Source: a virus (Duplodnaviria > Caudoviricetes). Taken from it: a stretch of 56,391 bases of DNA. Of the stretch, positions 2,972 to 47,509 are shown piece by piece. Where the stretch lies: the IMG/VR virus record IMGVR_UViG_3300011271_000006, positions 1 through 56,391 of that record; one strand, written 5' to 3'. The notes below the pieces were generated by a model. The model saw only the letters and a list, made by a program, of their open reading frames with translations. It was not told the origin of the DNA and did no database searches. Each line of letters opens with the position of its first letter. Positions within the stretch are counted from its first letter, which is position 1. The translations under genes were made by a program, and so were the position numbers.

Positions 2972-3188
2972 AATGTTAATCCTAATACTTTATTTCTTAT
3001 ACAAAGCTAAAAATTATATTTGGATGCCTACAATACTTATCCTAATCGCTTATGGTTGGTATAAAATCGAGCCTCTTTACTGGTATGTACGTGTCAAAAT
3101 CAAGGGCCGATTGCTGGTAATGCATACTTTTGAGCACGTTGAAGAAGGGAAGATTTTGGACCTGGAATGTACTGAGATAAAGTCTTAA
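2958..3188 (+). CDS. Possible small membrane protein, antisense to the structural operon
   Basis: Two hydrophobic segments, but it overlaps both neighbours and may be spurious. Confidence 0.25.
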   Translation: MLDFIMLILILYFLYKAKNYIWMPTILILIAYGWYKIEPLYWYVRVKIKGRLLVMHTFEHVEEGKILDLECTEIKS

Positions 3189-5040
3189 TTAATTCATCAC
3201 GATCAGGTCCAGTAGCAGTTAGTAAATCTGTTAATCGTTCATTTCGAGATTTAGCTAATTTAAGTTTTACCATATCAGATAATTTATAACCGCCTTTTAA
3301 TGCTAATACTCCTGCTGTAGCAATGCCAGGAGGACCGCCTTGAGTAGCGGCCATAATTTCCCCTAATGCTGCTGGTAATGCAAGTTGTCCATGTGGTGTA
3401 GGTGTAGGTAAATCAACTCGCTTATCAGACTTCATCCTCATTGCTGTTTGAGAACCTTGAATTAATTTTTGATTAGTATCAGCAATAGATTTTTCATCTT
3501 GTAATTCTTTCATCATTTGATTGACTTCCTTCTTACCAAAAAGAAGTCCTAATTTATCAGCATTAAATTCAATCTCAGGAATATCAGTTCCTTTTTTAGC
3601 AGAAAATCTCATTCCTTTCATTTGCTGTTGAACAGCGATCCTAGCACCTTCCTTAGCTGCTTCTATTTGTTGCTTAGAAGCATTATCAACCCATTCCTTC
3701 CAAAACTCAGACCGATCATCCCATTGACCAGGACGATTACGAGTAATCTGAGCACCTTTAATAAAAGCATCTTCTACTTGTTTTTCATCCCTGAAATTAG
3801 ACAATCCAGGTTTATATTTTCCTCCTGATGCAGCATCAATTGCATTAACAATACCATTACGAACATGCATCAAAGCATATCCAATTTGTCGATCTTGACC
3901 ACTTGAACTATTAGTTAAATCATCAGCTTTTGCTCGCAATGCAGATTGAAATTGATGTAAATCATCAGCATTAGTTCTAACAGATTTGTTATCTGTTAAT
4001 AATTTTCTTGTACTTTCAAGAGCTTTTTGAATTTCAGGATAAGGTAATGGTTGACCAGCAGAAATATTAGACATAATTCCAGGTTTTAATTTATTATCAA
4101 TATCGCTAATAACTCCACTTAAATCTACAGGACCAGAAGCCTTGATAGCAGGATTAATTTCATTCTTACCAACATTTTTAGCAGCTTGCTTAAGCTCGTT
4201 TATCTTTTGAAGTACATTAACAGGAATACCCATTACATCATTATAAATACTTTCAACAGCGCCTTTAGCTGATGTAATACGATCATTGACAAATTCTTCG
4301 AATTTATTTTGATGTTGGCCTTCAGTAGTGATCAACTTTTGCGACATTTGGCGAGTAGCGGGAGAAACATCAGCTAAAGACAATCGAGGATTTTCTTGTA
4401 ATCGTTGAATAACTTGCGGTAAATTTTCAGGTCCAATTGCATCAACAAGTGCAGTAACAGCTTTATTAGATGGTTTAGCTTCACTTACAACTTTAGCAGC
4501 TTTACCAACTGGTAAGCCAAAAGTTGCAATCATTCCTGCGCGTTCACCAGTTTCTTGACTTCCAGTGAGCTTAGTAACAGGTTCCTCAATAGTAGCTTTA
4601 ATAGTTCCTGTTAATGGCGATGTTGCCATTGCCAAAGCGCCTAAACCAATTTTACCAATTCCACTAGCAGGTAGATTTAATCTAATATCTTCTAAACCAC
4701 TGGAAAGTGTTTCGCGTCCTGCTGAATAATTTTCTCCAATTCCTTTTAAAATTTGAGTTGGTAAATTTGTAGCATAATCTACAACATTGCTTAATGGTGT
4801 AGCAGGAGCACCAGAACCTTTGACATTAACTTGACCAGAGGCTTTACGAGCTTCCCATTCAACAGGTGTTGGAATTCTTACAGCTTCCCAAGCCGATGTT
4901 GATGAAACAGGTTCAGGAACAATTTCATTTCCACTGTATTTATTAATTAATCCTTTAACATCAATACCTTTTAATAGATCACTTGATCCATATTTATTAG
5001 TTAAACTTTCAATATCAACATCTTTTAAAGGATCAGCCAC
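3100..5040 (-). CDS. Internal virion / DNA ejection protein
   Basis: 646 aa, helical and Ala/Lys/Gln-rich; third gene of the ejection cluster before the tail fibre, as in P22 gene order. Confidence 0.65.
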   Translation of the reverse strand: MADPLKDVDIESLTNKYGSSDLLKGIDVKGLINKYSGNEIVPEPVSSTSAWEAVRIPTPVEWEARKASGQVNVKGSGAPATPLSNVVDYATNLPTQILKGIGENYSAGRETLSSGLEDIRLNLPASGIGKIGLGALAMATSPLTGTIKATIEEPVTKLTGSQETGERAGMIATFGLPVGKAAKVVSEAKPSNKAVTALVDAIGPENLPQVIQRLQENPRLSLADVSPATRQMSQKLITTEGQHQNKFEEFVNDRITSAKGAVESIYNDVMGIPVNVLQKINELKQAAKNVGKNEINPAIKASGPVDLSGVISDIDNKLKPGIMSNISAGQPLPYPEIQKALESTRKLLTDNKSVRTNADDLHQFQSALRAKADDLTNSSSGQDRQIGYALMHVRNGIVNAIDAASGGKYKPGLSNFRDEKQVEDAFIKGAQITRNRPGQWDDRSEFWKEWVDNASKQQIEAAKEGARIAVQQQMKGMRFSAKKGTDIPEIEFNADKLGLLFGKKEVNQMMKELQDEKSIADTNQKLIQGSQTAMRMKSDKRVDLPTPTPHGQLALPAALGEIMAATQGGPPGIATAGVLALKGGYKLSDMVKLKLAKSRNERLTDLLTATGPDRDELIKTLSQYIPGPKSSLLQRAQKYALPAIGP

Positions 5041-5041
5041 G

Positions 5042-6406
5042 TTAATGCATACCTTGTTTCTGCATTATATCAAGTGTTTTAATAAATTTAATAGCAACTT
5101 TATTACCAGTCTTAGCTTTTTCTAATTGCTCATTAAATATTTTTGTCTGTTGATTTTCTGGCAAGAAATCAAACATAGCAGCGTCTAAACTCATTTTTTG
5201 TGGGAAACTAGATTTATGTGCTCCATATTTAGAATAATCATTTCCTTCAAAAGCTCCCGGCCTCGCTGCTTCAATTCGATCTTGTGCTATAGTAGTTTGA
5301 GTTAATTTAACCAAAGCGGGAAGAATTTGTGTTCTAAGATTTGGATTAGACATTTCTTTAGATGCTAATTCAGCATCAGAACGGCTACCATTTCTTGAAA
5401 CATATTGTTCAAGATATTTATTAACTTCTTGATAAGCTACAGTAGGATCAGCAGCCTTGTCAGATACAACACCTATATTTCGTAATAGCGCTATTCCTTT
5501 ATTCCATGCTTCAGTACCAGGACCAGAAGCAACAAGAGAAGGCATTAACTTTAAAGCTTGTAATGCTGGTGTAACAGCAGTCATTTTAGAAGTAGCTAAA
5601 TTTTGATCTTCAACAAATTGCTTTTTACCTTCCTCAAATAATGGTGGCATTCCGGTAATTGGTCCTCTTGGCATAGGCGGATTACCATATGCTGCACCAA
5701 AACGACTATCTAATGAAGCAGGAGGTTCAACAGGTAATGTTTGAACAGGTGTTCTAGTTGGAGGCATGACAGGAGCAGGGGCAGCCGTAGGCGCGATATT
5801 TCCTACCGGCGGTAGTGTACCTACCGGAAGCGATCTTGCGCCTACTGGTGGCGGTCCTGAGACGCTTCCAGGGGCAAGCTGTGGAGGTTGAGCACCTAAC
5901 ATTTGAGGTTGCCCCGTAGGTCCGACAGTTGGCGTTGTCGGCGGCGGTTGAACCTGAATAGGTGCGCCAGTAGCTCGCATACCAAATTTAGGACTTGTAA
6001 CAGTTGGTGTTATTGTTTGACCTGTATCAACTGCTCCCGGAGTACCGTAATGAAAATTAATCGCTTCTTGTGTTGTTTGTAATCGGGTTCTTATATTCTG
6101 CATAAATGCAGGAATTTGTCTTGGATCAGTAGGAATTTGACTTACAAAATTAGCATACATTTCAGGCTTAACAAAACGCATCTTAACTGCATTTTGAGCT
6201 ATTTTATCTAGTTGTTGGGGTGTTGCATTATCACCAGCAGCAGCTAATTCACGAATTAAATAGCTATAACCTTGATTAACAAGGTCTAATTGTTTTTGTT
6301 CAATACCTAAAGATTGAGACTTTAAAGCACCTAATTCACCCGCTGTTTCCAGTACAGATTTACCCTGATTAGGACGAGGATAGCTAGAGGTATCAATTTC
6401 TGGCAT
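5042..6406 (-). CDS. Internal virion / DNA ejection protein (gp20-like position)
   Basis: 454 aa with a Pro-rich central linker; follows the gp7-like gene. Confidence 0.6.
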   Translation of the reverse strand: MPEIDTSSYPRPNQGKSVLETAGELGALKSQSLGIEQKQLDLVNQGYSYLIRELAAAGDNATPQQLDKIAQNAVKMRFVKPEMYANFVSQIPTDPRQIPAFMQNIRTRLQTTQEAINFHYGTPGAVDTGQTITPTVTSPKFGMRATGAPIQVQPPPTTPTVGPTGQPQMLGAQPPQLAPGSVSGPPPVGARSLPVGTLPPVGNIAPTAAPAPVMPPTRTPVQTLPVEPPASLDSRFGAAYGNPPMPRGPITGMPPLFEEGKKQFVEDQNLATSKMTAVTPALQALKLMPSLVASGPGTEAWNKGIALLRNIGVVSDKAADPTVAYQEVNKYLEQYVSRNGSRSDAELASKEMSNPNLRTQILPALVKLTQTTIAQDRIEAARPGAFEGNDYSKYGAHKSSFPQKMSLDAAMFDFLPENQQTKIFNEQLEKAKTGNKVAIKFIKTLDIMQKQGMH

Positions 6407-6415
6407 TATATCTTA

Positions 6416-6616
6416 CTATTTAATAGTTAATGTTGATGTTAATAATTGATATTTATACTTTTTCTTATTGCACCATTGATATAAATAATCTATTGTTTTT
6501 CCTATTGTCCATTCTAATACAGGAGCAGAATTAGTTATTTTTCTAGTATTGTTATCCCAAATAACACCAGCTACATAATAAGGTGTAGTTATTTGTGATA
6601 AATTAAAAAGCATCAC
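6416..6616 (-). CDS. Hypothetical protein
   Basis: 66 aa; ATGA overlap with the upstream gene. Confidence 0.6.
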   Translation of the reverse strand: MMLFNLSQITTPYYVAGVIWDNNTRKITNSAPVLEWTIGKTIDYLYQWCNKKKYKYQLLTSTLTIK

Positions 6617-7392
6617 GCAGCTTCTTCATACAAAGCAGTAGGCAAAGGTGAACCACCAGGACCAAAAACCATTCTTGAATTATTCACATTACCTGGATTA
6701 TTGCTAGAATTATCATACAATCCTTTGTAGGCATAATAACCACCAACATCACTAGCTAGTTTAGAAAATGCTCCGCCTGTAGCATTGATAGCCGCTGCTC
6801 GTGCATTACCAGCACCAATAGCTGCTCCACCAGCTTGACTACCAGCCGTTACTACTGGTCCTGCTGTTCCTGTTCCTACTGCTCCACCTTGTACCGTAGC
6901 TGTTTGACCACCGCTTACTAAAGCCTGTAAACGATTAAATGCATTTGAACGATTAATATTTTCAAGATTAAATTGTGTTTGATAGGTTTGATCGGCTAAA
7001 CCAGTAGCAAAAGTTGCTGCACCTTTTAATGCTGCTCCTGAAACTCCTAATCCTCTAGCTGCTGCTGAATTCTGTACAGCTTTCAAACCTTGTGTTTTAG
7101 TGAACTGATAACCAGGAGTTTGTTCTAATGCATTTTGATCCATTACAATAGGAGAAGTCAAATAATCAAGTCTACTAGATAAATCATTCGCTGCTTTTGT
7201 TCCTAATTCTCGATATGGAGCTAAATCACTATATGTTGTGTTATAAACTCCCTTAGCATAACTCGCACTATCTTTTGCAATACCAGCGGCGATATTAGCT
7301 GCTTCTGTTTGAGCATTAGCAGCTTTATTAGCTGAATAAGCTGTCGCTGCTGCACCAACAGCACCAGCACCAATAATTGCTACTGCAACCAT
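6613..7392 (-). CDS. DNA ejection protein, P22 gp7-like
   Basis: Gly/Ala-rich N-terminus and the motif LEQTPGYQF..QG..AVQNSAAARG...SGAALK. Confidence 0.8.
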   Translation of the reverse strand: MVAVAIIGAGAVGAAATAYSANKAANAQTEAANIAAGIAKDSASYAKGVYNTTYSDLAPYRELGTKAANDLSSRLDYLTSPIVMDQNALEQTPGYQFTKTQGLKAVQNSAAARGLGVSGAALKGAATFATGLADQTYQTQFNLENINRSNAFNRLQALVSGGQTATVQGGAVGTGTAGPVVTAGSQAGGAAIGAGNARAAAINATGGAFSKLASDVGGYYAYKGLYDNSSNNPGNVNNSRMVFGPGGSPLPTALYEEAA

Positions 7393-14496: not shown

Positions 14497-14890
14497 TGAT
14501 TTTATCCTTATGTAAAACCGTTTTAGGTTCAGTTTTAATTTCAATAACCTTTTTCTTCTCAATCATTTCAAGATTTTTTATTACCTTATTAATATCAATA
14601 TTCGGCATATATTTATTCAATGTTGGATCATTATGCCTTTCCATAAGTGCATCATAAATTAGTTGTTTAGCGCTTTCAGAAAAGCTAGGATTACCTAATA
14701 TATCAATTAGATGTTGAACTGCGCGTGGTATAAATTTCTCCACATTAGCTCTAGCGTAAGTTCTAGCATTTTTCCATTTACTTGTCATTCCCTGAGAACG
14801 ACCAATTTCGTACCATGTTGTAGCAAGTGCCAATGCTGTTTCCTCAATCACTTTATGCTTAGGTATTGTAATAATGTCCATAACATTCAC
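14489..14890 (-). CDS. Hypothetical protein
   Basis: 133-aa ORF within a tightly packed operon. Confidence 0.6.
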   Translation of the reverse strand: MNVMDIITIPKHKVIEETALALATTWYEIGRSQGMTSKWKNARTYARANVEKFIPRAVQHLIDILGNPSFSESAKQLIYDALMERHNDPTLNKYMPNIDINKVIKNLEMIEKKKVIEIKTEPKTVLHKDKING

Positions 14891-15840
14891 AATAAAAAGG
14901 GGTTATAGTCAACGGGTGTGATCTTAGGTTTCTTCCTATCTTCAAACTCAGGAGTATGATCAACTGGTGTAACACCAGCAGAGAAAAGTGGAAAGCCTTC
15001 TTTCAAAGCTTTAGCTTTTAATTCCGGTGTGAGTTTAAGGACATGAATAGTTTGCTTACCTACAATTGGTTTTAATTCACCACCATATTTTTCAGCTAAA
15101 GCTTTACTTCCATATTTACTTATAGCTTCTTTAAAAGTTTCTCCATTATGCATAGCATTAGCTATATCTGTTAATTGACTATCTTCCCTAGCTGTTAATT
15201 TTAATTTATCAGATTTAGATTTTAATTCATTAATATCCAAATCAGGACCATTATATTCATATCTTAAATCACTTACTTTTTGAATTTCCTTCTGCTCAAC
15301 CTTACTACCATATTTCTTAGATATTGCATTAGCTTTAGCAACTAACATATCATCATAGAACTTCATCATACCTTCACCACCAACTTTAAGATCAAGACCT
15401 GATAGAAAATGAATTTCTTTATTAGGACTTTTATCAGTTGGTGAATTAATAAGTTTATCAGCAGCTTCTTTACCTACATAATCAGTTAATTTATCAGGTC
15501 CAACTTGTTCACGAATTACAACTTTCCCATTATGATCTTTAGCTTGTAAATCATTATTAGTTTTATTCCAACGTAATTCAGTTATTTGCTTACTTAAATC
15601 ATATCTAGCTGCTTGTGCTTCACCAGGGGTCCAACTGATCGCGTCCTTATTTTCCTCCACTGCTTGTCGAATAACTCGCTTTAATAATAAATCAGGCCAA
15701 GAGGTTTTGAATGGAGCGTTAGGTAAATTTTGAACATCAGGAATAAATTTATATGCTTCAGAAGGCAACATTTTTTCTAGCTCTTTAGCTAATTCATCTT
15801 GTGTATATTCTTTACCCTTATATTCAAATCTACATGCCAT
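14887..15840 (-). CDS. Large-polyvalent-protein-type domain, C-terminal half
   Basis: PNAPFK.SW..L.LKR....AVE...DAISWTPG..QA.RYDLSKQI and LKVGGEGM..FYD motifs. Confidence 0.65.
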   Translation of the reverse strand: MACRFEYKGKEYTQDELAKELEKMLPSEAYKFIPDVQNLPNAPFKTSWPDLLLKRVIRQAVEENKDAISWTPGEAQAARYDLSKQITELRWNKTNNDLQAKDHNGKVVIREQVGPDKLTDYVGKEAADKLINSPTDKSPNKEIHFLSGLDLKVGGEGMMKFYDDMLVAKANAISKKYGSKVEQKEIQKVSDLRYEYNGPDLDINELKSKSDKLKLTAREDSQLTDIANAMHNGETFKEAISKYGSKALAEKYGGELKPIVGKQTIHVLKLTPELKAKALKEGFPLFSAGVTPVDHTPEFEDRKKPKITPVDYNPFLL

Positions 15841-16489
15841 TGTAAAATCTCAAAGACGTATTATTAGTTCTATGACCCGAAAGCATGTTATATAAAGTTT
15901 TCATTTTTAAATTATAATTATCAACAGCCTTTCCCACACTCGGGTAAACTTGTTTTGTAAAATCATCAATTACTTTTCTAGCAACTTTGGTAATTTTACC
16001 ATAATTAGGATTTTTATCACTTAATTTAGCTAAAGCTAAATTATCTCGCCATGACTGAGGAAGTTTATCATCACGCTTTACAACACCACCATTACCGTCA
16101 TTCTTTCGAGCAACGCGAATAGCTGAAATCCAAGCTTCTGATCTAAAACCACTAGCCGCAATACTTCTTTTCTTTCTTAATTCATCAGATATAGTTAATC
16201 CACAAAAACTTTCGCTACCATCAGTTAAATTAACAAGATTTTCACGACCTATTATAGCTATAATTTCTTTTTCTAATCGTTGCGCTTCTTCATCAGTTTT
16301 ACAATTAGCTATTACATTAATTATAATACCATGTTTATTAACAATATTTTTCCAATGATTATTACTATGAGTCTCGCGCGCTCTATTATAATTATGAATT
16401 TTGTCTTTAGCGCGATGTGAGCCTTTACCAACATAAAAAGGCATTCCATCGCTGGCTTTAAAATGAATATAAACGTAATGTCGCCACAT
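15830..16489 (-). mobile_element. Free-standing GIY-YIG-type homing endonuclease
   Basis: YVYIH....G.PFYVGKG..RA, A..LE..II, LVNLTDG, with NUMOD-like C-terminal segments; likely ATG at 16489. Confidence 0.8.
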
Positions 16490-16490
16490 G

Positions 16491-17717
16491 CTAATCACAA
16501 ATCTTTTTAATTACACCAGCTTGTATCATACGATCAGTAATGTTGTCAAAATCTTTATTTATAGCTTCTTTAATTTTTATACTTTCGCGTCTATGACCCT
16601 GCCCAAAATCACTTTGTATTTCTTCAATATGTAAACTCTTTCCTACTCCTGGTATATCTCTATCATTCATACGAATATGAGCTAAGACATTAGGTTCATC
16701 CCAATGTGAGGTTTTGAAAGTTTCACTTATATTACCTTCTTTTCGATCAAAACTATCAGCGACCGCTTGTGCTTCCCATTCCTTATTATATTGACCAAAT
16801 TTCTCACCATTGGGCCTTAAAACCTTATAATAACCACCTTCATTTATAATTTTATTTTGAGCACCTTTTCGCTCAGGCAACTGTAACAACAATTCCCTAT
16901 AACTATTACCACCAGAAAGTTGCCATTGAGAATATTTAGGCGAATTAAAATTATCAGGATCAGAAGTTGAACCTCCCTTCCAAACCTCATTCAATCTAAC
17001 CTTATTATCAGCAATATGTTGCTCTAATTGCTGTTTTGTAATCTGACCTTTAGGTAAGCTTTCTAAATTAGTCCAAGCTAATTCCTCTTGTCTAATTCCA
17101 GGTTGATTTTTAAGAAAACCTAACCATTGCTCGGCTGTAGCTGAATTCTGCTTAGCATTGCTTACAGCCTTTTCAACTGTGGAAAAAAAAGTAGGAGCGA
17201 CTTCACCAGTCATTTGTTTACCCATTTGTCTAACCATTCCACTACCTAATGATACTATTCCAGCTTTCATCGCTAAAGGACCACCACCGGCCATACCAGC
17301 AATATCTTGTGCTCGCTGAATTCCTTCCTCACTTAAAGGATCAACTTCACCACTATAAACTTGACCAGGAAGTGTAGCAGCACTTCGCACCATTCTCTCA
17401 GGCCAAATTTGATAACGATTTTCACCAATCAAAGCTTTACCATATTCCTTAACAGGAGCTTGACTAGCCGCTACATCTTCAGGACTAGCTTGCCTAATAG
17501 GTTGTCTAGCTCGCATACGAGCAGCTACAGCTTCCCAAGGATTATAAACTAATTCAGGTGGTGTTTCAACTGGAAGCGCAAAAGATTGAGCTTGAGATTG
17601 AATAGTTTGAGAACTAACTACAGGATATAAAGGATTAACTGTATCGTCGCCAGTAGGTTCATTCTCACCAGCTTGATAATACGGTAAACCTTCTTCAGTA
17701 TATTGAAGCTTAGCCAT
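16491..17717 (-). CDS. Large-polyvalent-protein-type domain, N-terminal half
   Basis: KYSQWQL.GG..YRELLL.LP and SHWDEPNVLAHIRMNDR....K.LHIEEIQSD motifs. Confidence 0.65.
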   Translation of the reverse strand: MAKLQYTEEGLPYYQAGENEPTGDDTVNPLYPVVSSQTIQSQAQSFALPVETPPELVYNPWEAVAARMRARQPIRQASPEDVAASQAPVKEYGKALIGENRYQIWPERMVRSAATLPGQVYSGEVDPLSEEGIQRAQDIAGMAGGGPLAMKAGIVSLGSGMVRQMGKQMTGEVAPTFFSTVEKAVSNAKQNSATAEQWLGFLKNQPGIRQEELAWTNLESLPKGQITKQQLEQHIADNKVRLNEVWKGGSTSDPDNFNSPKYSQWQLSGGNSYRELLLQLPERKGAQNKIINEGGYYKVLRPNGEKFGQYNKEWEAQAVADSFDRKEGNISETFKTSHWDEPNVLAHIRMNDRDIPGVGKSLHIEEIQSDFGQGHRRESIKIKEAINKDFDNITDRMIQAGVIKKICD

Positions 17718-20086
17718 TACTCAACTCTAGAATATTTTCCAGGTTCATGTTCGATATAATAATTTCCATCCTTAGCCTTCCTAGCTCCCTCTATCGGTGG
17801 TTGTTCCTCAGTTCCTTTTCCATTTGGCTTTCCCTGCCCATTAGAAGCCTGTAGGCTCGCTTGTTCTGCCGCCAATTCTGCGGCCGTCTTGATGCCGATT
17901 TCCTCACCAGCGCCCGGCTCACCAGCATTCAACATACCCCTAACCAGCATTTGCACTATAGGCTGTATCTGTTCAACTGATATAGCAGGACCACTATTTC
18001 CTAAAGAAGTTAATCGCCGCGTCTCAGCTTCATAATCAAGCCTAGCTGCTTCTGCTTCAGCTTCCTTACGTCTTAAATCAAGCTCTTGTGCTTTAATATC
18101 CAACTCTTTATCTTTATCAGCTAAATCTTTGGCTTTTTGACCTAACAACGTTGTTAACTGTTGTATCTTATCACTCGCCTGATGCATAACTTGTTCAGTT
18201 TGAGGATCAGGTGCATCACCTGTTATATTAGGAGGAATAAGCTTTTTATATCGCTCAGCTAATACATCAGCTTGCGGAAAATCAAGCATTTTAAAGAAGA
18301 TATCACCACCAACATTCATAAATTCTTTATTTGCTTGTGCTAATTGTGTTAATGCTTGTGCAGCTTCCATACGCTTAGTAGCATAGCTTGGACCTGTATC
18401 AGCTTGAATATCATATATCCCAAAATTAGGATTAAAAGCAATTTCAATAACTTGTTGATCCTTATCCATCATAGGCTGTTGAGGATTACCACCTTTAACC
18501 ATTTCTTGTTGTAATTCAGGATCAATAGTAACATTCATTATACTTCCATCGCTCGCCATAATCCTCTTAACACGTTTAGTGTCATAAATCTTAGGAATAA
18601 GATCAATCAATATCTTGCCAGTATAACGAATAGCAATAGCGAGATTATCAATAAAGTGGTAAGTAGCTCTATCACCTTGTCTTTGACGCGCATTAATTGC
18701 GATACCTGATTTAGCATTTTCATTTTCACCTAATTGAGCTTGATATTGCCCACTCGCCATCATCATTTCATTTTGAGCAATCTTTAATCCTTCTGTATAA
18801 GCCAATCCAGGTTGCGGAGGCTGTGGGCGAGAAGGCGGCGGAATAGATTGACCATCTTCCCCCATATGATTATATGGCAAATAACTATGATTAGTAGTAT
18901 TCGCCGTTTTATAATATTCCTCAAATCCCTCTATTGCGTCAACAGGAGCAATCCAAGGTGCTTTAGTTTGTAAAGCTCCATATTCAACATTCGCCGATGT
19001 ATTGTAGTTATAGATTTGCTGAGCATTAATTAATGATCGTGTGTGCCCCTTACGATCAAGAATGCCATCAATAACAGTTTCAGTACCAATTAAACGTACT
19101 ATAGGAATATATTTACCTAACCATTCTCTTTCTTGAATAATTCTATCGCCAGCTATTTTATACCATTTAATATTATCAGTTAAAACCTTACGTTCCTGAA
19201 ATTTGTAGGCAACTCGATTTTCAGGAAATCCCTTGATTGCTTTATATGTCAGCTTTTCAACATCATTTAATTCACTCAAATATTTAATTATTTGTTCACG
19301 AGTATCGGGCTTTATCCATGCAACAAGTTTATCCTTTTCTTGTGTTTTCTTAAAATATTCACAAACTCTTACATTATCTTTAGTGATCCAACCATCAGTA
19401 CCACCATTATTCAATGTTGTCTGACCAGCTATTGAAGCGAATTCAGGATATTCTTCTTCAAATAATTCCTTTGGCATATCCTCGAATATAAAACCATATC
19501 GAGCGTCTGAACCATCAACCTCATTGATAAATTTATCCAAATAGACTGATCTAGGGTCTTTAATACGTCTTATATAAATTTCTTGATCAAAACTCTTGCT
19601 ACCAATCCAATCTGTATCAACTCGCCAATAACCAACACCAGCTTGTACTTGTGTTACTGTCGCACTATCATAAACATTTTCAGCACTTGAAATATATTCA
19701 ATATGATAAATTAATTCCTGAAAAACTTGTGCTCCCTCAAATGATGCATCATCCCCAACAGGTCTAATTCTGACACCCGGCTTATTTTGCTTGGCGTCAT
19801 TAATAATCATCAAATTGTGTTGAGCAGTTTTATTGATAGTAAGACAAGGCCGATCCTCTAATTCACGCCTTAGAACTAGATCACTATCCCATTGATATTT
19901 ATTGTGGGTATCTCCATTTGCAAATTTGATATCATATTCATATAACAAACGAGCATTATTTTCCCATTCCTCACATTCTTTATAAAGCTTTTTAGCTTCA
20001 ATAATTAATTGATTTTCTTCCTCTGTTTGCTTAGGAGGTTCTTTCCATTCGCTTGACCACATATCAGGCATTACGCGCCCATCCAA
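17717..20086 (-). CDS. Portal protein, P22-like
   Basis: RPCLTINK, N..SGIAI.ARQ.QGD...YHFIDNL, YDI..DTGPSYATKR.EA. Confidence 0.92.
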   Translation of the reverse strand: MDGRVMPDMWSSEWKEPPKQTEEENQLIIEAKKLYKECEEWENNARLLYEYDIKFANGDTHNKYQWDSDLVLRRELEDRPCLTINKTAQHNLMIINDAKQNKPGVRIRPVGDDASFEGAQVFQELIYHIEYISSAENVYDSATVTQVQAGVGYWRVDTDWIGSKSFDQEIYIRRIKDPRSVYLDKFINEVDGSDARYGFIFEDMPKELFEEEYPEFASIAGQTTLNNGGTDGWITKDNVRVCEYFKKTQEKDKLVAWIKPDTREQIIKYLSELNDVEKLTYKAIKGFPENRVAYKFQERKVLTDNIKWYKIAGDRIIQEREWLGKYIPIVRLIGTETVIDGILDRKGHTRSLINAQQIYNYNTSANVEYGALQTKAPWIAPVDAIEGFEEYYKTANTTNHSYLPYNHMGEDGQSIPPPSRPQPPQPGLAYTEGLKIAQNEMMMASGQYQAQLGENENAKSGIAINARQRQGDRATYHFIDNLAIAIRYTGKILIDLIPKIYDTKRVKRIMASDGSIMNVTIDPELQQEMVKGGNPQQPMMDKDQQVIEIAFNPNFGIYDIQADTGPSYATKRMEAAQALTQLAQANKEFMNVGGDIFFKMLDFPQADVLAERYKKLIPPNITGDAPDPQTEQVMHQASDKIQQLTTLLGQKAKDLADKDKELDIKAQELDLRRKEAEAEAARLDYEAETRRLTSLGNSGPAISVEQIQPIVQMLVRGMLNAGEPGAGEEIGIKTAAELAAEQASLQASNGQGKPNGKGTEEQPPIEGARKAKDGNYYIEHEPGKYSRVE

Positions 20087-36156: not shown

Positions 36157-36399
36157 TTGACAACAGTTTCTAAGCATGAAATAAACAGTTTACCAAAGCA
36201 GGAATCTAGAAAAATGTTAAAATTAACCAAAGCTCAAAGAAACTGGTTAATCTCTATGAACCGGCATAGGCAATGGATTATAGGTCCAGGACGCAAAATG
36301 CGATATTTTCTCACCTCAAATGGTTTAATTGAACAAAACAAAGAAGGTGCATGGAGAATAACACAAAAAGGAATTAACTTAATAACTCCATCTTCCTAA
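36157..36399 (+). CDS. Small winged-helix-like hypothetical protein
   Basis: Likely start MLKLTKAQ; L...GLIE......WRIT.KG pattern. Confidence 0.5.
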   Translation: MTTVSKHEINSLPKQESRKMLKLTKAQRNWLISMNRHRQWIIGPGRKMRYFLTSNGLIEQNKEGAWRITQKGINLITPSS

Positions 36400-39300
36400 G
36401 AAAGAATGCTCGTTGAGTTGTTCCGTGCTTCGCAGAGAGTTCAACCTTATTAATTTCTCTAATTACATCACCATCAATCATGTTCTGAAGTGTTCGTTTG
36501 AGAGCCATTGTTGATCCTAATCTATCTAATCTAAATGCTGAACTAGCTATCAAACGTCTGCTCAAATAGGCATATGGAATAATTTTACTTTCATATATAT
36601 TCCGCTCAACACCATAAGATGATGCACGTTCCCAACCAATATTAAAATAATCTCTAATTACTCGAATAACTTCTTCTGTTTGCTTACTCTCACTTGATGA
36701 TTTACCAATCTCCCCACGATCAAACTTACCTGACAATGCGCGAATATCATTTTGAACCATATTAATTGACCATTGAACATATTCAGGAAGTACAATTGGA
36801 TCAGACATATTAACACCAATGGCAATAAGAGCAGATAGCTTCAAGACTTTCATATGCGCGCGGTTCCAGAGTTGCCGTAAAACCTCTTTCTGTGTAGCGT
36901 TAATTTGATCATCGGCAAATTTATCGAATTTCTTCAACAATTCTTCAGCATCTTTTGATGAAGCTATATTAATTACTCGCTTGTTGTACATAATCATTTC
37001 ACAATTGGCGGCAAGCGAAGCAAACTTTTCAATCAATGAGAACGAAGGTTGAGCTTCAAGGTGAGTGTGGGAAAGTGCTGGTCTCGCACCTTCATATTCA
37101 ACAATAAGAAATCGAGGTAGCAAACCATCAGCAATCATGTCCTCATTCAATGCACCATAAAATGTTGAAGGTGTACTTTCAGCAAGAATTGTGAATGAAG
37201 GCGAAACAGTTACATCAATGTTTTTATCCCTATCGGCATAAATTGTAGGACGAAATGATTGACCAAAGCCAGATTTGTGATATAAGTCTAAAAGCATTCG
37301 TTTGAGAGCTTTTTCAGCCGAATTGGAATGTGGGTTAGCTAACGCTTCTAATCTGAGACCGAATTCACCTAAGATGGAAACAAAACACTGAGAGACTTTA
37401 TTCAAATGTTTGATAAGAGCTTGACCACTTGCAATTTCGCTTGGACCGATGAAACCGATAGAGGTAGGAACTTGGAGGCGAATGGTATTCATCAAACGAT
37501 CTATTCCACTTGCCATTGCCTCCTTACCAGTATTATGATGAACTGTGAAATCAGCAGTTAAATATAAATGATCACCATCTAAGGTAAATCCAAAATATTC
37601 ACTATCAGAAAGTAATTCAATTTTAAATCCAGTTACTAACACATCTTTCTTTTGCTGGCGAGCTTTTGATTTCTTATATTCTAAAACAAGAGGTAATTCA
37701 CTTGTATTACCGCTAATGCTAACTCTATAATAAGTTCCACCTGTTCCATTTTGAGAGAGTTTTTCACAAGATTTTACATAAGCTGCATAACCAAGACTAC
37801 GAGCAATAAATACTACATCTTCAGCTAATTGCTTAGATTTAGAAATATAATCGTATGTATTACCGTTTGTTAAATTTCCATCAGTATCAAGTAAGCCAGC
37901 TAAAATTGCCATACGATCAAAACGAGAAGCAGTTTTATATATTAATGGAATAAATTTGTTTTCAGCTTTCTTTAACCATAAATTTAAATTTTGAATAGCA
38001 ATTTGTAATTGACTTTGACGACCATAATATACAGCGGAATAAGGATTTTTAATATAATTATCTTGAAAAGATTTATTACCAGAAACTTGAGTTGTGACAA
38101 CTTTCATATCAAAATGAAATTTAATAATATTTTTTGCTTTATTTCTAATACTTTCATCTTGACTGGTTAAAGCAATCCTAGGGCCAAATTGACCATCACC
38201 AATCATTGCTCCTAAAAACCAAGGATCAATAGGCAAGTGATTAGATTGAGTAAAATTTACCGCTTTACGCTCAAGTTTATTTCTATGTTTAAATTCATGA
38301 TTTTTATTAATCCAATCACATACTCGAATATTAGTTCTTTTTCTTGTAATTGTATCCACAAGAGATAAAATATGATTAATATTGACAATGAATTCTTGCC
38401 CCTTAGTAGGAATAATTTTAACCATTTGTTCTTTACCACGAGCAAGATTTAACACTTGACGTGATGAACTATCATAGCCCATAATAAGCTCATTAATTTG
38501 AATATCTTCTACGTTCTTTGTGGAACCATCATACATAAGAATTTTAGTTCCACGAGTATGACAACCTGTCTGTGCGAGTAGGAGGACATATTGGTTCAAA
38601 CCTGTGCCACTAATATTATAGGCACGCCCACAAACACCAGCCATTAAGCCAATGGCAGCAGCTAAGGCAATCTCAGGGACAGGGCGGGGAGCAGCTGCAT
38701 AGATAAATTGAGCAATCTCACCAAGCAAACCAGGAGGAATTTGAAGTGGAACATCATTTAAACGTGAATGGATGGTTGAATGTTGTTTTAGGACTTTTTT
38801 TTCTTGGTTTTTTAATTTATCTTCTAATGCAATTTTAAAGCCATCAAAATCTATCGGTGGCAACATACGATCAAACGACTTATTAATCATCCATATTAAA
38901 TAATCTTTACGTTTAGCTTTATCTCTAGTTCCAAGGCTAGATTTGTGGAAGATACGTATGATTTGGTTTCTGTTTTGAGTATAGAATGCAACAATATCAA
39001 TAAATGCGAAGTCTGCTTCGGATTGAGAAGGATATAATGATTGCCATTTTCCGCTGTAAAGATTTTTAAATTTATCTCCGTTGGCAGCATTAGAAGCTTG
39101 TTCAATGATTTGTTCATCTGTTTGCTTTTCCTTGTTGCTACCTCTGTAAACATTTGTTGCTATTCCTCCTGAACCCATTTGTTCATAAAGTTGAGTGAGA
39201 ATATGTTGACGATCAACAATTGGCTTGTTATTATAAACTTGACCAGTAAATGCAGCGTAACGACTTGATGAATATATTTCAATATAACTTCGTCGCCTGC

Positions 39301-39706
39301 CTTGTGGTATTGAACCTTTAATTATTATGTGTAGACCTTTACCAGAAGGTGAGATTTCAGACCAACTATCGAATTCTTTATATATTTTTAATTGTCGATC
39401 TAGCGCAACATTATCACCTTCCGTATCATCCAAATCAATAAATGTATAAGGGTCGCTATCAGTAAACACAAAACCAATCCCGCTATAACCATTGGATAGA
39501 TTATTAAGCACATTATCAAAACTAGACCAAGTGTCAGGATCACTAACACTCGCGAGCATATGCCTGATTGAATAAGGAACCTTCGTAGGCTTGGAAGCTC
39601 CAATATCTTCATTTTTCCACAGCACCCACTGATTTAATGCTTTCAATTCATCGGGAATATTGTTAAGAGATTTGCGCAATTCTTTTAGAATGTCGAAATA
39701 AGACAC
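36374..39706 (-). CDS. Primase-polymerase (NrS-1-like AEP) fused to a helicase, intein-containing
   Basis: IPDELK...QWVLW, FIDLDD, EISPSGKGLHII and SQSEAD motifs; P-loop AQTG/TGKE interrupted by an intein. Confidence 0.88.
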   Translation of the reverse strand: MSYFDILKELRKSLNNIPDELKALNQWVLWKNEDIGASKPTKVPYSIRHMLASVSDPDTWSSFDNVLNNLSNGYSGIGFVFTDSDPYTFIDLDDTEGDNVALDRQLKIYKEFDSWSEISPSGKGLHIIIKGSIPQGRRRSYIEIYSSSRYAAFTGQVYNNKPIVDRQHILTQLYEQMGSGGIATNVYRGSNKEKQTDEQIIEQASNAANGDKFKNLYSGKWQSLYPSQSEADFAFIDIVAFYTQNRNQIIRIFHKSSLGTRDKAKRKDYLIWMINKSFDRMLPPIDFDGFKIALEDKLKNQEKKVLKQHSTIHSRLNDVPLQIPPGLLGEIAQFIYAAAPRPVPEIALAAAIGLMAGVCGRAYNISGTGLNQYVLLLAQTGCHTRGTKILMYDGSTKNVEDIQINELIMGYDSSSRQVLNLARGKEQMVKIIPTKGQEFIVNINHILSLVDTITRKRTNIRVCDWINKNHEFKHRNKLERKAVNFTQSNHLPIDPWFLGAMIGDGQFGPRIALTSQDESIRNKAKNIIKFHFDMKVVTTQVSGNKSFQDNYIKNPYSAVYYGRQSQLQIAIQNLNLWLKKAENKFIPLIYKTASRFDRMAILAGLLDTDGNLTNGNTYDYISKSKQLAEDVVFIARSLGYAAYVKSCEKLSQNGTGGTYYRVSISGNTSELPLVLEYKKSKARQQKKDVLVTGFKIELLSDSEYFGFTLDGDHLYLTADFTVHHNTGKEAMASGIDRLMNTIRLQVPTSIGFIGPSEIASGQALIKHLNKVSQCFVSILGEFGLRLEALANPHSNSAEKALKRMLLDLYHKSGFGQSFRPTIYADRDKNIDVTVSPSFTILAESTPSTFYGALNEDMIADGLLPRFLIVEYEGARPALSHTHLEAQPSFSLIEKFASLAANCEMIMYNKRVINIASSKDAEELLKKFDKFADDQINATQKEVLRQLWNRAHMKVLKLSALIAIGVNMSDPIVLPEYVQWSINMVQNDIRALSGKFDRGEIGKSSSESKQTEEVIRVIRDYFNIGWERASSYGVERNIYESKIIPYAYLSRRLIASSAFRLDRLGSTMALKRTLQNMIDGDVIREINKVELSAKHGTTQRAFFLRKMELLS
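37532..38563 (-). mobile_element. Intein with LAGLIDADG endonuclease (344 aa)
   Basis: Starts CHTRGTKILMYDG, ends FTVHHN followed by Thr; internal LGAMIGDG and LAGLLDTDG. Confidence 0.95.
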
Positions 39707-45640: not shown

Positions 45641-46054
45641 GTGCGTGCGGAAAATCGATCACTTCTGCTTAGTGGACCTTATCAAATGCGTGAAGGCGGC
45701 TATGACGAAATGACTATTGCCAATGGGCTCAAGAAGCTCGAAGGCAGTCTAGCGTTTGGGTGCAATGATAGTGCGGCTGATCTGGTCAGACGCGCGCGAG
45801 AGGAAATTGATCGGCTAGAGAGAATGAGTGCTCAGGCGTTCAGGATTGGTGTCAGCAATCAGGATCGCATTGTGGCACTCGAAGAGGCAATCCATCGAAC
45901 GCGAACACGGCTAGAAAGGTACTGCAATGAGGTAAACGCCGGCCGAATGCCAAGCGATGCGCGTGAATTCATGCGTCGCGTCCAACTTGGATTTGATTCG
46001 CTGATGGAAGAAGCGAACGCCATAACCAAAGCGACGTCACTCAAGGACGAATAG
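45641..46054 (+). CDS. Hypothetical protein in a GC-rich patch
   Basis: AADLVRRAREEIDRLE coiled coil; start uncertain. Confidence 0.55.
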   Translation: MRAENRSLLLSGPYQMREGGYDEMTIANGLKKLEGSLAFGCNDSAADLVRRAREEIDRLERMSAQAFRIGVSNQDRIVALEEAIHRTRTRLERYCNEVNAGRMPSDAREFMRRVQLGFDSLMEEANAITKATSLKDE

Positions 46055-46923
46055 TGATTAATCTATCTCTCAAAGACGATCGTAATACTTTAGCTGCTCG
46101 CATTAAAAGCGACATTAATGAATATTGCGAAAAAACATATAACGATGGTCATAGGGATCATCTTGGTGCTTCGATTATGGGCGAAGCTTGTAATCGTAAG
46201 CTTTGGTATACTTTTAGATGGGTGAAAGAAGAAATTCATGATGGTCGAATGCAGCGTTTGTTTCAAGTTGGTAAAGATGCTGAGCCTAGATTTATTAAGT
46301 ATCTCATGGATATAGGGTTTGAAGTAAAAGCAATAAATCCTGTATCTATAAATCAATTTCGCATTAGCTCTTGTAACGGACATTATGGTGGTTCATTAGA
46401 TGGAATGTGTAAAGCTCCTGCTCGATATGAAATCTCTGAAGATTTAATATTTCTAAATGAATTCAAAACTAATGGTACTGGTGCAGGATTTACTAATGTA
46501 GAAAAAGATGGTATATTCAAGAGCAAGCCTAAGCATTATGCTCAACTTTGCCAGTATGGATTTCATTATCAATTAAAATATGGTCTTTATATAATTGAGA
46601 ATAAAAATGATAGTGATTTGACTGTTGAGATAGTTCCTCTTGATTGGAATTTAGGAGCTCAATTAGAGAATAGAGCTAACCAAATTATTCAAAGTCAAAC
46701 ACCACCTGAACGCATCAGTGATCAACCAAGCTACCAGGAATGCAAATGGTGCCACTTTCAAAGTATATGTCATTTTGCTGAGGAAGTAGAAAAGAATTGT
46801 AGAAGCTGCAAGCAGGCTAAACCTGTTGAAAATGGTGAATGGTTTTGTTCAAGATTTAATGATAAGATACCTAAGGATTTTATTAAAAAAGGCTGCGAAT
46901 ATCATGCGACTATTAATATCTGA
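46054..46923 (+). CDS. PD-(D/E)XK Cas4-like exonuclease
   Basis: R.HLGAS..G..C.R.LWY.FRW, GSLDG, EFKT, HYAQ..Y, CKWC.F..IC. Confidence 0.88.
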   Translation: MINLSLKDDRNTLAARIKSDINEYCEKTYNDGHRDHLGASIMGEACNRKLWYTFRWVKEEIHDGRMQRLFQVGKDAEPRFIKYLMDIGFEVKAINPVSINQFRISSCNGHYGGSLDGMCKAPARYEISEDLIFLNEFKTNGTGAGFTNVEKDGIFKSKPKHYAQLCQYGFHYQLKYGLYIIENKNDSDLTVEIVPLDWNLGAQLENRANQIIQSQTPPERISDQPSYQECKWCHFQSICHFAEEVEKNCRSCKQAKPVENGEWFCSRFNDKIPKDFIKKGCEYHATINI

Positions 46924-47509
46924 TGGACTAACAATATCTCGTCAAGACGCACTAAAAAATAATTTATCTCGTTATAAGGGAGATAAATGTTTAAAAGGTC
47001 ACACAGGCATTAGATATACAAACAATGGAAATTGTGTTGAATGTAAAAGAGAAGAATATATTCCAACAGGAAGGAAAAGAGGAAAAGAAGCTGATCCCAA
47101 TAAGGAATTAGCTAGAAAAAATGGGGAAATATATTTTTATTCAGGCAAACCATGTAAAAGAGGACATTTAGCGAAAAGGCGAATGCAAAGCGGCTCATGT
47201 TACGAATGTGATCGTTTATGTTACAAATTAAAAGAAAAGGATTATGGCTTACGATCTAAATATAATATTACCTTAGAAGAATATAATAAAATGTTTTGGG
47301 AACAAAACGGTAAATGTGCTATATGTGATAACGAAGAAAGCATAATTGATCCAAAAACAAATAAAGCAAAAAAATTATCTGTTGATCATTGTCATGAAAC
47401 AGGAAGAATTCGCGGGTTGTTATGCGGTAATTGTAATAGAGGAATTGGATTACTAAATCATAATGTTAAATTGATTAAAAAAGCAGCCTTATACTGTGAG
47501 GCTGTATGA
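46826..47509 (+). mobile_element. Endonuclease VII-type HNH homing endonuclease
   Basis: KY.IT.EEY..M...Q.GKCAIC and LSVDHCH.TG.IRGLLC..CN.GIG; likely start MRLLISDG near 46904. Confidence 0.88.

Follow-up and report, generated by a model that had tools for sequence, protein, structure and literature searches.

The head-module gene that directly follows the portal gene in this phage is broken in two by a free-standing GIY-YIG homing endonuclease gene (HEG), and its halves are probably reunited by a clasp of two short end-peptides that belong to the same cassette as the endonuclease. All three open reading frames (ORFs) lie on the minus strand of the window, the whole 56,391-nucleotide stretch analysed, in the order N-half (17717-16491), HEG (16489-15830) and C-half (15840-14887). 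The initial annotation of this locus gave no strand; its statements about the sequence itself all hold. The features of the locus are these:

16491..17717, minus strand: N-half ORF of the split head-module gene, 408 aa plus TAG, ending ..DRMIQAGVIKKICD
16608..16709, minus strand: core motif SHWDEPNVLAHIRMNDR..KSLHIEEIQSD, the putative left border of the cassette (N-half residues 337-370, invariant columns)
16494..16607, minus strand: N-tail, 38 aa, FGQGHRRES..DRMIQAGVIKKICD
16497..16499, minus strand: TGT codon of Cys407, penultimate residue and sole Cys of the N-half
15830..16489, minus strand: free-standing GIY-YIG homing endonuclease gene, 219 aa from the ATG at 16489 (phrog_314)
15724..15840, minus strand: C-head, 39 aa, MACRFEYKGKEYTQDELAKELEKMLPSEAYKFIPDVQNL, predicted beta-hairpin plus helix (AF2 model, head profile)
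15832..15834, minus strand: TGT codon of Cys3, sole Cys of the C-half
14887..15840, minus strand: C-half ORF, 317 aa plus stop, starting MACRFEYKGKEYTQDEL
15586..15723, minus strand: core motif PNAPFKTSW..ISWTPGEAQAARYDLSKQ, the putative right border of the cassette (C-half residues 40-85, invariant columns)

The upstream junction reads ..ATT TGT GAT TAG c ATG TGG..., with the TAG at 16493-16491 followed by one base and then the HEG ATG at 16489, just as the initial annotation had it; the HEG could alternatively start from the GTG at 16498. At the downstream junction the HEG end, ..AAT GGC ATG TAG, shares 11 nt with the C-half start, ATG GCA TGT AGA, and the HEG stop (TAG, 15832-15830) is formed from the last base of the Cys3 codon and the Arg codon that follows it, which confirms the overlap between the endonuclease stop and the next start that had been described. 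Since stops and starts abut or overlap, the arrangement appears to suit coupled translation of all three ORFs from a single mRNA.

In unsplit relatives the two halves correspond to a single polypeptide. The motifs LHIEEIQSD and PNAPFK.SW, on either side of the GIY-YIG gene, had been taken in the initial annotation as consecutive parts of one domain in large phage proteins. This reading was sound: the first motif lies in the N-half and the second, as PNAPFKTSW, in the C-half, and the suggested search for unsplit homologues found them. The N-half matches 247 longer proteins (715-2040 aa) over their N-terminal two thirds, while the C-half aligns from PNAPF to its C-terminus with the C-terminal third of the unsplit homologues and has in common with them the end motif K(I/L)TPV.(Y/F)NPF. 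Both motifs stand in frame, with no stop between them, in 74 of the 76 IMG/VR loci that hold both, and in an alignment of 79 longer proteins one and the same chain carries both motif sets with little or no variation. The native linkers between the motifs in unsplit loci are hypervariable and unalignable, ranging over 66-492 nt (22-164 aa).

It could be argued that the insertion broke the domain and that the halves are now independent proteins or a decaying gene, given that polyvalent proteins are modular according to passages of Iyer et al. (PMC5512222) and that no split domain is common to the N and C parts of one split locus, L168. We consider this very improbable: in the window, the core residues that never vary in the unsplit family are all retained in both halves, at least ten diverged loci preserve the arrangement intact, and such a reading offers no reason for fixed-length conserved ends with one Cys each to persist.

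The sequence between the core motifs is almost certainly a three-part cassette, consisting of a 38-aa tail, the HEG and a head of 38-42 aa, which replaces the whole native linker between IQSD and P(D/N)APF. The split locus L005 and its closest unsplit relative, L060, are alike as far as IQSD, show no similarity after it and are 80% identical from PDAPF on. The first part of the cassette comprises about 30 specific codons that close the upstream half (..DF..I...M..AG.I.K.C-D-stop), preceded by the first residues of the N-tail, [WF]xQxxR, which are common to unsplit genes; the third part comprises 38-42 codons that open the downstream half (M-A-C-R-F/Y-x-Y-x-G-K-x-Y...). The N-tail is 38 aa long in 5/5 lineages, likewise in L090, L091, L169 and L170, and measures 37-39 aa in nine database N-halves. 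A profile of the head matches 133 cluster representatives, and the match is N-terminal, at residue 1, in 124 of them, as counted from the protein sequences; the remaining nine are partial, unrelated matches in HTH-repeat or ankyrin proteins, and no internal copy of the head in the host family was present among the 133 matches of this profile search. Apart from the initial [WF]xQxxR, the tails are absent from the unsplit relatives, which have unrelated linkers and no internal head. The linkers of the unsplit genes L003, L010, L046, L050, L064 and P0015 are faintly N-tail-like (..EFNRIDNKIVNSG..); as candidates for the ancestral linker these resemblances were too weak to use.

The initial annotation had remarked that the locus lacks a spacer for a ribozyme core, and this was upheld. 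Non-coding space amounts to 1 nt upstream of the HEG and none downstream, an Rfam scan over 14500-18000 at E<=10 returned no intron families, and in L170, a split locus that lacks the HEG, the halves are separated by a spacer of merely 11 nt, TAA-AGGAGAATTAG-ATG, with a Shine-Dalgarno sequence. At the protein level, the split-locus ORFs have no Hint or intein Pfam match at E<=0.1. The N-tail begins with F or W, where a split intein starts with Cys, Ser or Ala and carries Hint blocks A and B, and the heads end ..VQNL|P, ..VQNI|P, ..GSSL|P, ..IQAV|P and ..AKKL|P, where the rule is (H)N followed by Cys, Ser or Thr. Canonical split inteins are of ~100 + 35 aa, and tail and head together have 77 aa; loss of both tails would moreover leave a linker below the shortest natural one (22 aa). 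Removal of the insert by group I intron splicing or by a very small split intein, to yield one continuous protein, thus seems extremely unlikely, even though introns and inteins are common HEG sites, fractured genes combine a free-standing HEG with a split intein (passages of PMC2677866), the primase gene of the same window contains a true intein, and inteins occupy another site in P0101 and L169, which are homologues of the split gene. Judged on the sequence, the locus very probably holds neither intron nor intein, and its product would be two polypeptides. Ligation of the halves, an option raised in the initial annotation, was not borne out: the tails fall short of the length it would need, intein blocks are lacking, and in the C-half the Cys does not stand at the N-terminus.

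Across the sequences compared, the terminal peptides are most conserved at their Cys pair. Cys is absent from 107 of 120 unsplit homologues and makes up 0.023% of their residues overall, and the Cys content of the other window ORFs of at least 150 aa is 1.07% (131/12,222 residues). In all seven split lineages examined the break-adjacent Cys is the only Cys of its half, with two exceptions recorded. Database proteins gave the same pattern on both sides of the break: 9/9 N-halves carry a Cys within 1-3 residues of the C-terminus (with no other Cys in eight of them), and in every one of the 124 N-terminal heads residue 3, 4 or 5 is a Cys (with no other Cys in 104). The N-tail Cys codon is TGT or TGC depending on the lineage, and the codons for Cys, Asp, Arg and stop likewise vary among lineages. 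One Cys per new terminus in otherwise Cys-free giant proteins suggests a specific chemical linkage across the break, for which an inter-chain disulfide between the break-adjacent cysteines is a reasonable, if tentative, candidate. The cytoplasm, where the protein folds, is reducing and a disulfide cannot form there.

The tails might also be co-converted passengers, kept for their stop, start and ribosome-binding signals, with the halves rejoining through the core of the split domain alone. In L086 and L085 the K-E/D codons that precede the HEG do contain Shine-Dalgarno-like sequences (AAGGAG or AAGGA), and tail and head codons include overlapping stops and starts, so that the tails partly serve in expression as well and some codons are constrained for reasons other than docking; these signals span few codons, yet the 38-aa tail keeps its length and sequence despite saturated dS (N-tail dN 0.24-0.67; for the tails overall, dS at least 0.88 or incalculable and dN 0.19-0.67). 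Pairwise identity averages 46% for the tail, 54% for the head, 45% for the HEG and 32% for the less conserved C-core residues 51-220. Because tail and head are conserved no better than the HEG, common ancestry could account for some of their conservation. The Cys pair, however, is invariant across synonymous codon changes in a Cys-free family, and the tails are kept in L170 and L168, both of which lack the HEG and the second of which also lacks the split core. Although the Aeh1 heterodimer forms without its tails (passages of PMC3045599) and the co-fold evidence given below is weak, we regard a purely passenger status as unlikely, and these observations argue that the tails likely have a docking role.

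An AF2 model of the C-half has strands at residues 4-7 and 10-13 and a helix at 14-22, with pLDDT of 86/91/80 for the first three ten-residue blocks of the C-head, and the head is confidently predicted to be a hairpin plus helix. When tail residues 363-408 and head residues 1-47 were co-folded from 5-row alignments, ipSAE was 0.33, against 0.02 for the best of three controls; three runs agreed in at least 89% of contacts, with partner pLDDT of at least 70. Of 80 solved complexes, 58 pass the co-fold mark, as do 2 of 110 mismatched pairs; at <=0.60 just 7 of the 80 solved complexes pass, together with both of those mismatches. The co-fold lends weak support to tail-head pairing. The initial annotation had proposed that the two peptides form a docking module; in their Cys pattern and their dS and dN values they behave as a selected junction module, and for binding between them the co-fold support is weak.

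The cassette is present in at least ten diverged loci. Those that bear the HEG are L005, L022, L085, L086, L090, L091 and L169; L168 matches the window solely in the tail (365-408) and the head (1-42), the split core being missing on both sides. In a C-core tree of 82 rows the five split genes require five changes, with L005 sister to the unsplit L060/L062 (99*) and L086 sister to the unsplit L057 (97*), and an AU test against one clade of split genes gave dlnL 148.6 and p 0.0005. On this tree the cassette is polyphyletic on the host gene and a single origin is rejected. The sequencing runs listed for this locus were two soil-metagenome DNA runs, which may be the source of the window, with no RNA run among them; contigs of these two runs contained no joint and no HEG-less variant, an observation that weighs neither way.

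The host gene lies between the portal and scaffold genes. The domains ART-PolyVal, LPD3, LPD23, LPD37 and LPD38 occur in its relatives and in other C-parts that bear a head, and its BFVD neighbours bear polyvalent-protein names. Polyvalent proteins that are packaged and injected are likewise encoded in the head module beside the portal, as passages of Iyer et al. 2017 (PMC5512222) describe, and from this literature and the gene position we infer that the split protein may be packaged in the virion. Unlike those polyvalent proteins, the halves in the window match no Pfam LPD model: their 725 aa contain no Pfam domain, and neither half matches PHROG. The words 'intein', 'homing endonuclease' and 'cysteine' are missing from the main text of PMC5512222, which accordingly describes neither the split nor the Cys pattern. 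INPHARED tblastn gave one record for the N-half and four for the C-half, all distant, and a single-protein scan of IMG/VR with the N-half gave three pattern matches with no relative among them. A profile of the split domain had no match among PDB sequences, Foldseek against PDB at E<=1e-3 had none for a 779-aa unsplit model or for the C-half model, and an ESM Atlas search on the split domain found unnamed viral clusters only. A PD-(D/E)xK-like nuclease was suspected from the invariant D..E.Q; it was supported by no tool and is not claimed.

We propose that the cassette spreads by homing, in which the endonuclease would cut intact alleles and repair would copy the HEG with its flanks; the DNA coding for the conserved motifs probably provides the homology arms. 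The end-peptides would be the cassette's remedy for the gene break. The N-tail (helix plus terminal strand) would pair with the C-head (hairpin plus helix) as a small clasp, joining the halves, allowing the split domain to refold and keeping the C-part tethered to the N-part, which presumably bears the signal for incorporation into the capsid. At each new terminus the invariant Cys would most likely contribute to a disulfide between the chains, or else to a metal site that they share, and with the virion outside the cell such a link would make both chains act as one. In its fullest and more speculative form, this model has a portable clasp whose disulfide restores chain continuity after virion exit: HEGs would have a third route beside introns and inteins, the split polyvalent protein would be packed and ejected as one chain, and the clasp would later become a general linker joining parts of polyvalent proteins, also in loci of the L168 type, which have lost both the HEG and the split domain. 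Such an arrangement bears on phage packaging and ejection of large effector proteins, and suggests that free-standing endonucleases can evolve cost-free insertion without splicing machinery.

The precedent invoked in the initial annotation, Aeh1 nrdA/mobE, fits these observations. [quoted passage not shown] 2010 (PMC3045599). As there, a free-standing HEG splits a conserved gene and overlaps its downstream half, and novel C- and N-terminal tails at the break apparently arrived with the endonuclease. The Aeh1 endonuclease is of the HNH type and its host is a ribonucleotide reductase broken between active-site strands, whereas here a GIY-YIG HEG interrupts a polyvalent-type head-module gene in a variable linker. 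The tails also differ: in contrast to the Aeh1 one-off, they are a conserved family in many diverged genes (124 cluster representatives), their charges are not complementary, each has an invariant terminal Cys, and they outlast the HEG. Opposite tail and head charges as in Aeh1 were considered as a conserved feature and rejected, being inconsistent across lineages. In the same passages Crona et al. predicted such tails elsewhere and expected them to be case-specific. One experimental case, Aeh1 NrdA, underlies the principle that tails mend a HEG-broken gene; in the loci described here the principle would take the form of a conserved, mobile and widespread family with a clear signature, testable across many genes.

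The T4 topoisomerase genes gp39/gp60, split by mobA, also have tail-like extensions on both products (passages of PMC3045599) and resemble the present locus as a HEG-associated phage gene split with such extensions. No conserved tail family or Cys pair is reported for them in those passages, and nothing in the present locus corresponds to the gene-60 bypass element. A prior description of a tailed, Cys-bearing split was not found in the portions of text that our literature search covered. The clasp may serve as a compact natural heterodimerisation or disulfide tag and, if the model is true, would be a small orthogonal coupling tag for split proteins.

[quoted passage not shown] 2009 (PMC2677866) describe. 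The present locus is like them in the order N-part, endonuclease, C-part, in control elements that come with the HEG and in conserved, co-travelling flanking peptides. It is unlike them in that it has no intein blocks, in flanking peptides of 38 + ~39 aa and in junction residues unfit for splicing. The endonuclease families differ as well, being mostly Vsr-like in fractured genes and GIY-YIG here. The HEG of the window matches phrog_314 'homing endonuclease' at 2e-15 and scores below the cut-offs of the Pfam GIY-YIG models (22.5 vs 27; 14.6 vs 22.6), and YVY..FYVGKG and the catalytic positions R36, E73 and N87 are invariant in 5/5 HEG homologues; by these residues it is a GIY-YIG homing endonuclease and apparently intact. 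Its GC content is 32.0%, against 35.9% for the window.

The split gene comprises three consecutive open reading frames (ORFs), all on the minus strand in the ORF listing:

17717-16491, minus strand: N-half, 408 aa, C-terminal end ..LHIEEIQSDFGQGHRRES..DRMIQAGVIKKICD
16498 or 16489 to 15830, minus strand: middle ORF, the GIY-YIG homing endonuclease gene (HEG), 222 or 219 aa by the start chosen
15840-14887, minus strand: C-half, 317 aa, begins MACRFEYKGKEYTQDEL.., then ..LPNAPFKTSW..ISWTPGEAQAARYDLSKQ

The upstream junction reads ATT TGT GAT TAG, one further base, then ATG TGG. At the downstream junction the end of the HEG (AAT GGC ATG TAG) shares 11 nt with the start of the C-half (ATG GCA TGT AGA), with the C-half codons for Cys and Arg together supplying the endonuclease stop. 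The middle ORF hits PHROG 314 ('homing endonuclease', 2e-15) and scores under the cut-offs of the Pfam GIY-YIG models; no variation is seen at its GIY/YIG, Arg, Glu and Asn positions across five homologues. Upstream of the split gene lie the large terminase and portal genes, and downstream those for scaffold, major head, head-closure and a P22 gp4-like tail accessory protein; such neighbours mark a podovirus-like head module. Among public sequencing runs, this DNA was traced to two soil-metagenome DNA runs only. The window also contains (36374-39706, minus strand) a 1110-aa primase/polymerase gene with an intein between two stretches of PHROG 3022, DNA primase; this intein carries Hom_end_hint at 4e-18 (residues 382-450) and a LAGLIDADG_3/Hom_end domain (residues about 599-672). 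Homing elements of two kinds or more are therefore present in this phage.

The initial annotation had taken the motifs on either side of the HEG for consecutive parts of one domain in large phage proteins, and unsplit homologues bear this out. An N-half search limited to longer proteins (E<=1e-3, 715-2040 aa) matched 247, and when 79 were aligned, the two sets of motifs lay in one chain and were invariant or nearly so. Nine of nine long homologues inspected read ..SLHIEEIQSD-WHQxGRKxGY, a variable stretch, then VP(D/N)APFKK(T/S)W..ISWTPGEAQAARYDLSKQ, and the two halves combined align over the whole length of the homologues, down to the common C-terminal K(I/L)TPV.(Y/F)NPF. C-half relatives are encoded in 174 IMG/VR stretches, the best 80 of which were retained; four of these loci are broken by a contig end, and in 74 of the other 76 the motifs are in frame without a stop, 66-492 nt apart. 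The remaining two, L005 and L022, are interrupted by 891 and 916 nt.

ART-PolyVal and LPD domains are present in homologues of the split gene, and its structural neighbours in BFVD (28 matches at E<=1e-3) bear polyvalent-type names; this places the host family among the phage polyvalent proteins, predicted by one account (Iyer et al., PMC5512222) to be packaged and injected. Neither a profile comparison with PDB sequences nor Foldseek against the PDB returned a relative of the split-domain fold. A 2387-aa protein of Dolichospermum phage Dfl-JY45 (PP438435.1; L001:4404-11567) contains the entire domain twice, in tandem and unsplit, with N-motif/C-motif pairs at about residues 866-1185 and 1652-2129. 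In the database protein P0101 and at locus L169:2-622 the homologue has an intein-like insert (LAGLIDADG_3) at another conserved site, within YQLPGG-..-NYRE; the first-position residue of the P0101 insert is not Cys, and the L169 gene combines the insert with the HEG split.

L005 and L022 are arranged like the split gene, with an N-part, a GIY-YIG gene starting MW.. and a C-part. Their N-parts end in ..KDFDGIAAKMIEAGIIKKICD or ..KNFDDLAAKMLKDGVIKKECD before the stop codon, and their C-parts start MACRFEYKGKTYDQDEL.. or MACRFTYQGKTYDQDGL... Metagenome contigs searched with a degenerate DNA pattern based on the C-half start yielded two further lineages, L085 and L086, as well as a near-copy of L022 (L084) and one chance match (L087). 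The upstream ends in L085 and L086, which lay outside the search pattern, are ..AGIIQKDCD and ..DGLITKECD, each followed by a stop codon. Independently of either peptide, a profile of five endonucleases found two more lineages: L090, with junction ends ..KDGILKVVCP (stop) and MRPDCTYFLNGKKLSYDEF.., and L091, with ..ADGVLEVVCD (stop) and MACRYTYQGKTFEAHEF... The same scan detected related endonucleases in unrelated contexts (L089, L092, L114, L115, L131). A MACRY-variant pattern added L169, which has the HEG, L170, which is without it and keeps the core domain, and L168, also without it, where only the end-peptides match the window. Loci with DNA context number ten distinct cases, eight with the HEG and two without.

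Splicing was assessed for both RNA and protein. A permissive Rfam scan of window positions 14500-18000 gave no intron family, its four matches being to unrelated small RNAs with E-values of 0.87-6.3, and no Hint/intein domain was matched in either half with Pfam. The N-half end-peptide starts with F or W, and the C-half end-peptide ends without the residues required for protein splicing. The strongest argument against splicing is L170, which has the same split and the same end-peptides, its halves parted by TAA-AGGAGAATTAG-ATG; with a spacer this short and no HEG, there is nothing to splice. The split gene has a gene order in common with the fractured genes of PMC2677866 but lacks the defining features of an intein.

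In unsplit genes the linker between the motifs is hypervariable, 22 to 164 aa among the 53 extracted, and unalignable past the first WHQxGRKxGY. In the split genes, including L090, L091, L169 and L170, the N-half ends in a tail of exactly 38 aa and the C-half begins with a head of 38-42 aa. The unsplit gene closest to L005, that of L060, resembles it up to IQSD and is 80% identical to it from PDAPF on, with no similarity between. A maximum-likelihood tree of the C-core was built from 82 rows and 239 columns, L055 being excluded as too short; the 77 rows labelled unsplit include four cut by contig ends (L008, L028, L043, L047), for which that label is provisional. The five split genes are scattered on this tree, requiring five changes, all forced by starred branches: L005 is sister to unsplit L060/L062 (99, starred) and L086 to unsplit L057 (97, starred). 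Constraining the split genes to one clade cost 148.6 log-likelihood units (AU p 0.0005). The tail-HEG-head cassette has therefore moved between distant alleles, or recombined among them. Such a pattern would be the expected outcome of homing with co-conversion of the flanks, and we infer homing from it.

Mean pairwise identity among five lineages is 46% for the tail, 54% for the head, 45% for the HEG, 47-56% for the flanking core motifs and 32% for the rest of the C-core. Synonymous sites of the end-peptides have reached saturation (dS 0.88 to above 2, or incalculable), with dN at 0.19-0.67, and lineages use different codons for the conserved Cys, Asp and Arg and different stop codons. The transfers are accordingly old, and what is conserved is the protein sequence. 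Some end-peptide codons double as ribosome-binding sites or stop/start overlaps, and such expression signals explain a few positions but not entire peptides. These comparisons indicate selection on the end-peptides.

The host family avoids cysteine. The residue is absent from 107 of 120 stored unsplit homologues (0.023% of residues) and makes up 1.07% (131/12,222 residues) of the window's other ORFs of at least 150 aa. A search for N-half relatives of 224-714 aa gave 67 matches: 56 of the 58 untailed proteins are without Cys, and the nine that end in the tail (the window's own and eight more) all have one 1-3 residues from the end. In all seven split lineages examined, the N-part has its sole Cys as penultimate residue and the C-part has its own at residue 3 (5 in L090), two exceptions aside: the L091 C-part has an additional Cys close to its end, and L022 has one ahead of the true start.

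A head profile (40 positions, seven heads) was run against 1.84 billion cluster representatives at E<=1e-3. The head lies at the extreme N-terminus in 124 of the 133 proteins matched, some short ones, e.g. P0310, being doubtful members. All 124 have a Cys, at position 3 (117 proteins), 4 (four) or 5 (three), and 104 have no other, though lengths reach 2229 aa. The nine internal matches are partial, to tandem helix-turn-helix or ankyrin proteins, and among the 133 no head was found inside a chain of the host family; the head thus exists at breaks only. The position and invariance of the two cysteines suggest a possible inter-chain disulfide, with a shared metal site as the alternative.

Three consecutive large ORFs at 3100-7392 on the minus strand (646, 454 and 259 aa), which are included in the 1.07% figure, have no cysteine; the two longer ones, scanned against Pfam, gave no match. 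They may be further internal or ejection proteins sharing the Cys-avoidance of the split gene. In contrast to the Cys-free ORFs of the virion module, two overlapping ORFs at 46054-47509 on the plus strand (289 and 227 aa) are exceptionally rich in Cys, at 4.2% and 5.7%.

In the AF2 model of the C-half (mean pLDDT 78.9) the head forms strands at 4-7 and 10-13 and a helix at 14-22, with pLDDT of 86, 91 and 80 in its first three ten-residue blocks, and Cys3 directly precedes the first strand. The tail could be a helix with a short terminal strand (..G-V-I-K-K-I-C-D) that adds to the head hairpin. Co-folding of the tail (363-408) with the head (1-47), on five-row alignments, gave 'weak support', with an ipSAE of 0.33, the best of three controls scoring 0.02. 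Of 80 solved complexes 58 reach the mark applied, as do 2 of 110 mismatched pairs; at 0.60 or under it is reached by only seven of those complexes and by both passing mismatches. Runs shared at least 89% of contacts, and the pLDDT of the partners was at least 70. As to origin, the head may have descended from a DNA-binding module of an endonuclease. Tandem helix-turn-helix repeat units in P0286, P0293, P0311, P0313 and P0320 weakly match the hairpin-plus-helix of the head profile (F/Y-x-Y-x-G-K-x-Y..EL), and the start of P0320 resembles the end of a GIY-YIG domain.

The closest known system is Aeh1 NrdA-a/mobE/NrdA-b, for which PMC3045599 describes endonuclease-borne tails essential for activity and predicts similar tails elsewhere. 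The split gene described here differs in HEG family and host gene. Unlike those of Aeh1, its tails form a conserved, portable family, each bears a Cys at the break, and they outlast loss of the HEG. We file this case with the HEG-split, tail-assisted kind.

At L168 the halves are separated by an 81-nt spacer in place of the HEG, and BLAST matches this locus to the window only in the tail (residues 365-408) and the head (residues 1-42). Its C-part continues into a region like that of P0261, a protein carrying LPD3, ART-PolyVal, LPD23 and LPD38, of which the head alone aligns with the window family. Here the peptide pair persists on two large polypeptides with no split domain in common, and this is hard to account for unless the pair itself joins them. 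Plausibly, the capsid-incorporation signal would lie on the N-part alone, so that the C-part must ride along. An inverted repeat, AATGCTCC..GGAGCATT, lies in the L168 spacer (L168:8737-8820); the GGAG before the C-part start is part of its 3' arm, and the repeat could form a hairpin masking the ribosome-binding site.
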